A stretch of 58,019 nt of DNA, the filler included, from Sluysia triapertura (taxonomy: Eukaryota): NCBI GenBank assembly GCA_046118255.1. It is 4 parts of 4 records of this genome, joined end to end, with 100 filler letters (N's around TTAATTAATTAA, not from the genome) between each part and the next. Parts side by side here need not be neighbours in the genome. Positions count along the whole stretch, not along the records: positions 42,099 to 58,019 come from JBJNIA010215142.1; 3 more parts are not named here. One strand, 5' to 3'. The notes under the pieces are model-generated. The model was given only the letters and a program-made list of their open reading frames with translations, was not told where the DNA came from and ran no database searches. This document shows positions 48,704 to 50,083 of the stretch, one piece after another. The first letter of the stretch is position 1. Each line of letters opens with the position of its first letter. A program made the translations under genes and the position numbers.

Positions 48704-49639
48704 TCACATATTTAGGGGGTAATACCTCTTACACCAATTTTGGGTGGATGTTTTCATGTAATGTTGAAAAGATTGAGATGAAGTTATAGTTGAGGGCGTT
48801 AAATTTATATTAATATTATAATGAGAATGTACTATTAATTTAGAATTGAAGTAAGTACATGAAGAATTTATTTCATGTCGTAGTAAAACGAGATATAATA
48901 ATTTTATAATTTGTTCAATATTCTTTTGATTAGAGATTTTATTAAAATTTAGGACCAGTGTTGTGTCCGAATTTCGATTATGAGCATCATTGATAATAGT
49001 AAATCTATGAACATATATTTGTTTATTTAACCTAAGAAATTTTATATAATAATTATTTATACATCTAATTTTGATTTTTAATTCATCGTAATTTAACAAA
49101 AAGATTTTAACTAAATTAAAATGAACTAAATAAAAAACATTAAAATCTATTATATACAACAGAATTTTATTTGTATTTGTGATCTCTTTGTAATTTCTGC
49201 ATTTGGCCGTTGTAATCACATCTAGAAAATAATTATATAAATGACTAAAATCATAATTTACAAAGTTTTTTAACAAATTAAATTTAGAAATCTTACGAGT
49301 TTCTAGAAAATTAGCATAGCCGTGAGTTCTAATGTGTTCTTCTGGATTTTGTACAAAATCTGCTCGTAGAATTATGTAATCATTGTTGCCAGTAATTGTT
49401 TTATACTTTAACATTCGAGCAAATACTATGATAATCGATAACTTTGTGCTTTTTACGGATTCCGAAACCGTTTCATCTGTTACGTTAATAGTTTTCTTAA
49501 ATAGATTTGTTGTTGCGCTTAAAATCATAAATCTTTTTTTGCTAAAACGTAAGATTGTCGTTACTTTTTTAATATGTACATGTACATTTGAATCTACTAA
49601 GATCGAATTCAGGAGTCGTAATTGTTTTACATTATCCAA
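48704..49639 (-). CDS. 311-aa intronless ORF, 3' part of the cassette 7 cargo
   Basis: Long open frame abutting and overlapping the end of the REEP fragment; ends NLTPST...YYPLNM. Confidence 0.55.
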   Translation of the reverse strand: MDNVKQLRLLNSILVDSNVHVHIKKVTTILRFSKKRFMILSATTNLFKKTINVTDETVSESVKSTKLSIIIVFARMLKYKTITGNNDYIILRADFVQNPEEHIRTHGYANFLETRKISKFNLLKNFVNYDFSHLYNYFLDVITTAKCRNYKEITNTNKILLYIIDFNVFYLVHFNLVKIFLLNYDELKIKIRCINNYYIKFLRLNKQIYVHRFTIINDAHNRNSDTTLVLNFNKISNQKNIEQIIKLLYLVLLRHEINSSCTYFNSKLIVHSHYNININLTPSTITSSQSFQHYMKTSTQNWCKRYYPLNM

Positions 49640-50083
49640 TGTTTGATGCCATAAATTTGCATTAAAATCTCCTCTGCAGCAAGATTTCCCATAGCTTTTG
49701 AAGCTTCATGTATTGTAGAATCGATTTGCTTTTGATGTTTTAATACGAATGGGCGTATAAAAACATAATATATTTTAACCGAACCATTCCAACTAGTAGG
49801 AAACATTAAATATAGTAGAAATGCACATTTTAATAAAGTATCCAATGGGATCCAAAACAATAAAACACCAATAAAATTTTCCAATAAAGAAAATGTTGCA
49901 TAAACCACTCAATAAGTTAACCATTCAGTATTATCATCTTTTTCTTTTGTTACGATAGCTTTAATGCTGCAATAAGCTGGATATAAAAACTCTATGAAGT
50001 TGGCTAATAATAAGATAAATAATATTACATAACATTAAACCACCAACAAGATATATACGATCAACTCCAGAAAATTTTGACAT
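49627..50083 (-). pseudogene. REEP5: Intronless REEP5/6 (DP1/Yop1/HVA22 family) pseudogene
   Basis: MSKFSGVDRIYLVGG..., then after a frameshift near 50005 [41 protein letters not shown]...WIP...LKCAFLLYLMFPTSWNGSVKIY..FIRPFVLKHQ. The conserved Trp is TGA at 49909-49911; no introns. Confidence 0.88.

Follow-up and report, generated by a model that had tools for sequence, protein, structure and literature searches.

The stretch of DNA analysed here, which we call the window, comprises 58,019 nt from Sluysia triapertura (GCA_046118255.1), an animal with an A+T-rich genome, and the feature under study lies in the part derived from JBJNIA010215142.1 (42,099-58,019). The gaps between parts, at window positions 16949-17048, 29816-29915 and 41999-42098, each consist of 44 N, a 12-letter linker and a further 44 N, and the order across them may not be genomic. 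At the locus, a broken and intron-free copy of REEP5 is placed between a hairpin-bearing module and a long open frame, in the following arrangement.

48704..49671, minus strand: 322-codon 3' open frame of the chimera, counted from the GDFN Gly and closed by TGA (open reading frame, EN-C profile, Atlas)
49669..49677, minus strand: junction between REEP and the 3' frame, at the inferred phase-1 exon end of REEP5 (alignment A1 and a loose end at 49673)
49672..50072, minus strand: processed REEP5/DP1 copy, residues ~33-171 (Pfam, homologs, alignment, read contigs, tree)
50073..50132, minus strand: leader of the cassette, which gives the ATG at 50083 in frame with the N-terminal REEP piece (sequence reading)
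50133..50205, no strand assigned: hairpin 2, with inverted CCAATCAGAGT arms and a variable loop (z -5.4, 0 of 200 shuffles; covariation)
50245..50290, no strand assigned: hairpin 1, with a 13-bp stem and a 20-nt loop (z -4.1)
50320..50445, no strand assigned: A+T-rich stretch with (TAA)n-like repeats (sequence)
50480..51295, no strand assigned: strand-skewed block, poor in G on the sense strand of the cargo (GC skew -0.62) and more repeated than any other part of the unit (copies and depth)

The rest of the window is varied in content. A decayed CR1/L2-like LINE occupies ~18500-23200 (-), with zinc-knuckle-like ORF1 remains, an endonuclease, a reverse transcriptase (RT) and a C-terminus, plus inverted fragments. 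It is followed by a 1.5-kb element with ~400-bp inverted arms that are 86% alike (23195-24680) and by a PP2C (PPM1A-like) gene with introns of about 36, 36 and 172 nt (24994-26210, +). An intron-free frame at 15601-15957 (-), presumably GTSF1-like, carries a CHHC-type zinc-finger pattern (Pfam zf-U11-48K, E 0.09). Two related, G+C-richer stretches of ~65 nt within 14729-15000 have a tRNA-like look, and ARAGORN calls no tRNA there; a direct repeat of 196 nt, 95% alike, is found at 35939-36134 and 38634-38824, 2.7 kb apart.

The REEP part was identified on the minus strand as TB2_DP1_HVA22 (PF03134; E 2.3e-22, 79.1 bits against a cut-off of 27.2), and its closest homologs are REEP5-type proteins with up to 62-63% identity. 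It spans residues ~33-171 of a 182-aa relative (P0001), about 140 codons, without an intron-sized gap, and the PP2C gene in the same window does contain introns. As a clear homolog of the REEP5/DP1/Yop1 family, the copy covers both hydrophobic segments and the amphipathic helix region; it differs from the family in lacking ~32 N-terminal residues and the last exon, and in being broken. In the tree, it falls among lophotrochozoan-type REEP5 sequences on a long branch, within no starred clade. The frame begins at an ATG at 50083, 57 nt from the CCAATCAG arm at 50140; codons 1-4 (MSKF) are unlike REEP, homology begins at ~50072, and the stop lies at 49629. The near-complete, intronless REEP5 core that a preliminary description had placed 57 nt from hairpin 2 is thus confirmed.

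Three breaks interrupt the chimera: a 20-nt deletion at 50009-50011, a TGA where a conserved Trp is expected (49911-49909), and a frame shift at the junction with the 3' frame. All three lie within REEP, leaving the 966-nt 3' frame free of breaks (p about 0.027). No A-run of at least 7 follows the REEP part, the nearest being ~130 nt inside the 3' frame, and the two frames overlap, which agrees with the preliminary description of a REEP copy running with no poly(A) and no gap into an open frame that it does not share at present. That description had also held that a target-site duplication (TSD) and a tail would mark the REEP part as an independent LINE-made retrocopy. Neither was found around REEP; the likeness between the flanks was equalled by 679-1057 of 5000 random 25-mers and is attributed to chance, and an old TSD could have decayed.

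From stop to stop, the 3' frame covers 48704-49705 (333 codons). Since no open frame in 100 order-3 Markov windows was longer than 143 codons, the 3' frame is not a product of chance. The 311-aa orphan ORF described earlier therefore stands as an open frame, with that length when counted from a TTG at 49639; from the first ATG (49528) it is 274 aa. No homologs of the frame were found in Pfam, NCBIfam or PDB sequences, a word-based search gave no match among 1438 candidates, and phmmer gave none against 1.84 billion representative proteins. An exact look-up of five window frames in a protein collection returned nothing, one of the five being uninformative (it began one codon after the TTG). The single-sequence AlphaFold model of the frame has a pLDDT of 29.

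Over its first ~45 codons, the 3' frame has a likeness to a LINE AP-endonuclease, namely to the C-terminal half (GDFN...T): an EN-C profile, made from 40 CR1/L2-like ORF2 proteins of 81 fetched loci after short, near-duplicate and motif-less rows had been dropped, scored 11.0 bits on residues 10-54, which was equalled by 2 of 5000 shuffles, for a motif first picked by eye. The window's own LINE scores about the same on this profile. When GDFN was masked, the match was not significant (655 of 2000 on the whole frame, 54 of 2000 when limited to residues 12-75). In Atlas, the hits were endonuclease-type clusters at 0.91, but with a recognition of 2167, which is below 2300, and with 109 shared features. 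In the frame we recognised neither a catalytic SDH motif nor an RT domain, the RT profile giving 0.4 bits with 44 of 300 shuffles as good. The similarity to the ORF2 C-terminus is weak (6 of 300 and 107 of 3000 shuffles), and a joined endonuclease and C-terminus profile, built after the fact, was equalled by 18 of 3000. LINE relatives were found neither in viral contigs nor by protein words. On balance, we slightly favor a LINE origin of the 3' frame as an endonuclease remnant, and the frame is then probably no true orphan, contrary to the earlier claim, although the masking result weakens the support for this.

Further evidence came from sequencing reads. The DNA of the feature is present in only one public run (X1), whose kind is not on record and which is possibly the source of the assembly; no RNA run is listed among the public holders of this DNA, which has no bearing on expression. 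The flank contigs of X1 show 0 differences to the window at depths of 11.6 and 16.7 and, because of this identity at such depths and of records of up to 43 kb, X1 fits genomic DNA. All read evidence given here is from this run.

The junction lies where REEP similarity stops, at ...NLAAE (alignment A1). In the same column of the alignment, two nemertean isoforms of one gene (P0007 and P0008) differ by an 11-aa insert, and an annelid model (P0013) diverges, turning to G-K. The residues that follow the boundary (V, A or G) all fit phase 1, and all three continuations begin with G, as expected of a phase-1 boundary. Human REEP5, we assume, has a phase-1 intron near this position. By comparison with these other phyla, we infer that the REEP part ends at an exon boundary of REEP5.

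At 49673, one contig departs from the window; its loose end of 26 letters holds the same junction plus one base. Together with the adjacent letters it reads L-A-A-E-G-D-F-N-T-S-L-W, which places REEP in frame with the 3' frame, the window copy being one base shorter at this point. The convention for loose-end positions was confirmed at 50009 and 50011, where the conserved GYG/GAQLLAN comes into frame only that way. The in-frame junction is seen in one contig of unstated depth, and no junction indel is listed at a 20% share, though the depth dips to 356. An acceptor at the Gly codon of GDFN is plausible and even common, because AG directly precedes the second base of this codon in 19 of the 81 LINE endonuclease loci. 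REEP and the 3' frame were likely once joined in frame. The search for an intact fusion of REEP and the orphan frame, suggested beforehand, thus yielded one X1 contig that reads through the junction (AAE-GDFN), and the earlier proposal of a former in-frame chimera made through RNA gains from it, as it does from the intronless copy, the inferred exon boundary, the lack of TSD and tail, and the host pieces in other cassettes.

The notion of a single former gene fared less well; the window copy is rather one decayed member of a multi-copy family. Summed depth, which by the tool's own warning is not copy number, was 676-1593 over REEP and the 3' frame (48585-50103) compared with 41 in the left flank bins. 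At ~50-130 times the flanks, REEP and the 3' frame have been amplified with the repeat. Sequence diversity is an independent sign of this: seventy-six contigs match a 513-nt REEP stretch, 60 of them less than 95% alike and one at depth 946, and the leader, REEP and the 3' frame occur together in many diverged versions in this one run. We infer tens to about a hundred REEP-bearing copies, dispersed or tandem. By hand alignment, a loose end at 49963 resembles the leader in 24 of 31 letters, and in another copy the leader may therefore join REEP further down. The parent gene, or else other fragments, may be represented by two contigs at single-copy depth, 657 and 934 nt long, whose match to REEP extends over just 88-110 nt.

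The window TGA is absent from all listed contigs (TGG at depth 435 and TGT at 960, of 1395), and the loose ends at 50009 and 50011 carry the GYG segment that the 20-nt deletion removed from the window copy. Nine changes of the window copy are near-private, with 98-100% of the depth opposing the window letter; a single one of them is synonymous, and at most of the others the contigs give a typical REEP5 residue. In the window, REEP has thus decayed free of selection. The most amplified versions of the REEP frame are broken as well, by a 1-base insertion at 49872 in the depth-946 contig and a 1-base deletion at 49789 in a depth-412 contig. REEP is therefore a passenger and, as the window copy and these two deep contigs are all broken, the unit has spread without need of the REEP protein. 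The REEP5 copy in the window is a dead passenger with no sign of function. Among 12 listed of 76 indels, none falls within the 3' frame, which is weak evidence.

The module to which REEP is attached recurs. Seven CCAAT heads occur in the window, at ~2.7, 5.7, 13.6, 33.1, 41.3, 50.1 and 52.7 kb and in both orientations. Five of these heads have a second hairpin region, an A+T-rich microsatellite stretch and a strand-skewed block attached, and over aligned columns these modules are 46-66% alike. In most copies, the fold of the CCAAT stem is much stronger than that of shuffles; 5 of the 15 stem pairs are changed on both sides, and the covariation score was equalled by 2 of 500 shuffles, a figure that, according to the tool, is not a probability. 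Hairpin 2 is likely a promoter element or a structural signal. An Rfam scan of the window at E up to 1 found no family and no hammerhead ribozyme, only a sub-threshold miRNA match on hairpin 2. The skewed block has a boundary motif in common with the copies at ~3810 and ~53620 and shows no LINE coding signal; profile and similarity searches did not support its being a decayed LINE 3' end or mitochondrial DNA. A partial eighth module at 10810-11290 (-), with a hairpin and a skewed block and no CCAAT pair, is 80% like 4861-5150. Directly upstream of the REEP cassette, 51300-53640 holds a second cassette with its cargo, in the same orientation and at similar depth; the pair may have been copied together as a block.

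The frames that the heads face all differ, and host pieces were recognised in three of the seven cassettes: REEP5, otoferlin and ARHGAP1. The presence of the latter two runs counter to the possibility, considered in the preliminary description, that other cassettes lack host-derived 5' fragments. The otoferlin N-terminus (5909-6600, +; E 2e-11) is intron-free, begins with its own ATG and is split over two frames by a frameshift; behind it, at ~6786-6863 (+), lies a C-x9-C-x6-C-x3-H finger (Pfam zf-CCCH_UNK, E 0.001, below cut-off). Its ATG (5909) is ~190 nt from its hairpin compared with 57 nt for REEP, so that the capture position said to be the same in both copies is only roughly shared. The third piece, an ARHGAP1-type BCH/CRAL-TRIO segment (E 1.4e-5), lies in frame within a 548-codon frame at 11450-13342 (-), between parts without identification; the leader there contains three short tandem repeats, and the partial eighth module stands directly behind the frame. 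With this third identifiable cargo, the proposed theme of membrane-shaping and membrane-fusion proteins is weakened. An RT score of 3.6 bits in the BCH piece (0 of 300) is ascribed to chance among 126 tests, and Atlas gave no match for residues 262-535 of the 548-codon frame.

The cargo of cassettes 1, 4, 5 and 7 gave no identification, the PDB search having covered, for cassette 1, a single frame of a part of it and, for cassette 4, a single ORF; weak matches of this cargo to PD-L1 (E 0.12) and MotB (E 0.048) were treated as chance. LINE motifs picked by eye in other cargo frames were not significant on endonuclease, linker or C-terminal profiles. A 473-codon frame at 39663-41237 (-) continues beyond one stop and contains ACGCCCT. 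This 7-mer occurs three times in the window (0.49 expected), each time near the end of a long cargo frame and read as Thr-Pro. The 3' frame of the REEP cassette is weakly similar to the 39.7-41.2 kb frame (17 and 46 of 2000 shuffles) and has no similarity to the 11.4-13.1 kb frame. The recurring Thr-Pro 7-mer and the weak frame similarity hint at a 3' module that the cargo frames may share.

In the module itself, summed depth rises to ~9,900 over the hairpins and to 32,000-53,000 over the skewed block (flank contigs 12-17). A non-mobile history is very unlikely in our view: in it, tandem or segmental duplication would have turned a chimeric retrogene behind a common promoter into a host gene family that is now decaying. 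In its favor, the depth stays high with hardly a break over two cassettes (~48.6 to ~53.7 kb), a single contig represents many near-identical copies, and CCAAT boxes are ordinary promoter elements. However, the depth on either side of the block is that of single-copy DNA, the module exceeds the REEP cargo in depth 30-50 times, the seven heads in both orientations carry unrelated cargo, and the REEP frame is broken in the deepest contigs.

The excess of module over cargo is what solo LTRs would produce, and this brings in a second alternative, in which the ~1.1-kb module is LTR-like and the RT switched to REEP5 mRNA and then returned, at a microhomology close to an exon junction. The accessible part of Tan et al. 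2016 (PMC5131818) describes such partial retrocopies without tail or TSD, which replace internal ORFs, arise by switches close to exon junctions and undergo renewed amplification. Behind the stop of the 3' frame, part of the hairpin head recurs weakly (48585-48690, -; 27 of 2000 random windows, best of 7 heads), which could be counted in favor of this alternative. The window nevertheless contains no second full module after the cargo, neighbouring modules are just 46-66% alike, no gag, RT or integrase was matched in the frames scanned, and any protein likeness of the 3' frame is to a LINE and not to an LTR element. We regard template switching of this type as quite unlikely.

A third alternative, which we consider unlikely, is a Helitron/Helentron-type carrier. 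Here, a LINE-made or pre-existing REEP5 retrocopy would have landed in a rolling-circle element and been amplified as DNA, and the 3' frame would be the remnant of the CR1-derived endonuclease of a Helentron. The module, with its hairpins, its microsatellite and its very high depth, has the look of such an element, and by eye an 8-bp inverted match, GTAGTGGT/ACCACTAC, stands at both ends of the 50.3-51.3 kb module in one copy. According to the available text of the relevant reports, Helentrons have a CR1-like endonuclease, hairpins, microsatellites and no TSD (PMC4067079), and bat Helitrons have amplified retrocopies (PMC4224331). Against this origin, REEP has no poly(A) or TSD and ends at an inferred exon boundary instead of a 3' UTR, no Rep or helicase was matched by Pfam in the window frames scanned, and the stems enclose 20-40-nt loops, unlike the short 3' palindromes of HINEs.

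Overall, we think it probable that the locus is a decayed copy of a repeat unit in which an intron-free REEP5 piece is followed by a long 3' frame, the join likely being spliced and likely in frame at first, and that the unit likely spread as a non-autonomous mobile element. In the putative mechanism, a transcript with REEP5 exons would have been spliced from the phase-1 donor of a late REEP5 exon to an acceptor directly within the GDFN Gly codon; the receiving sequence may go back to a LINE endonuclease. Reverse transcription of the chimeric RNA would then have fixed the intron loss behind the hairpin leader, which supplies the start codon, and the unit would have spread as a non-autonomous element with REEP as its passenger. 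The best guess for the mobilising enzyme is a LINE-type RT acting in trans; an enzyme of this kind existed in the genome, as the decayed CR1/L2-like LINE at ~23.2-18.5 kb attests.

A bolder version of this account, conceivable although we hold it doubtful, is that an undescribed RNA-borne element acts as a natural exon trap. Two fixed parts, a promoter module with twin hairpins and a 3' exon that brings a splice acceptor, would bracket whatever host exons are caught, so that each passage through RNA would yield an intron-free, in-frame fusion, multiplied tens to hundreds of times with its 3' frame kept open. The 3' exon would in the present case be a dead LINE endonuclease frame, and a CCCH-type finger would take that place behind the otoferlin copy.

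Gene capture by mobile elements is known already, usually through DNA copying or template switching, and captured pieces are rarely high-copy in animals; the accessible part of one article (PMC5470649) provides general context. What is new here is the combination of a probably once-in-frame junction at a predicted exon boundary with the amplification of a dead passenger. If capture by splicing onto a built-in acceptor is true, it would be a route that yields in-frame fusion genes by design, and it would give many cassettes of this genome a concrete mechanism. In the literature searched, which was mainly non-subscription, we found no description of a REEP5 retrocopy within a transposable element or of this cassette family.

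Several known systems invite comparison. Pack-TIR and Pack-MULE elements, in the accessible portion of Tan et al. 2021 (PMC8277862), capture at the DNA level, as in Ssk-FB4, which is drawn with introns, and have TIRs and TSDs. The REEP unit shares with them host sequence carried and re-amplified by a non-autonomous element, and long arms; it differs in that the cargo is intron-free, the module stands on one side only, no TSD is seen and the window has no inverted module left of the 3' frame. Penelope-like elements and retrozymes are distinguished by the hammerhead ribozyme, which is absent here (Rfam scan, E up to 1).

Helentrons, with HINE and DINE-1, are portrayed in the available text of Thomas et al. 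2014 (PMC4067079) as high-copy elements with hairpins and a microsatellite, a link to a CR1-type endonuclease and occasional capture of gene fragments. These traits recur here, the first as a high-copy non-coding module and the endonuclease link as a possible one. Where that group has 11-15-bp subterminal inverted repeats and a short 3' stem-loop, one copy here offers the 8-bp match seen by eye. The present unit, however, has no Rep or helicase in the frames scanned, twin long-loop hairpins that are internal to the unit, and processed cargo. For bat Helitrons, the accessible part of Thomas et al. 2014 (PMC4224331) reports 118 copies over four cases of retrocopies beside a promoter inside a mobile element. 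Placement beside a promoter, here a putative one, in a mobile element, followed by amplification, is common to both systems. The bat retrogenes keep poly(A), TSDs and empty sites in that account, whereas neither poly(A) nor TSD surrounds REEP, and no 5'-TC or 3'-CTRR ends were recognised.

With the LTR-mediated chimeric retrocopies of Tan et al. 2016, as far as the accessible text goes, the unit shares a partial intron-free coding sequence without poly(A) or TSD inside a repeat, often in frame, with a junction near an exon boundary, and re-amplification as a non-autonomous unit. It departs from them in lacking paired LTRs and LTR-element ORFs, with the module on one side only, and in a junction that falls on an inferred donor position, suggesting splicing, with a 3' part that is LINE-like if anything. 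The amplification also appears far above the few insertion sites reported in that text. Although one tested defining feature of each is missing here, the REEP unit works like LTR-mediated chimeric retrocopies and Helitron-amplified retrogenes.
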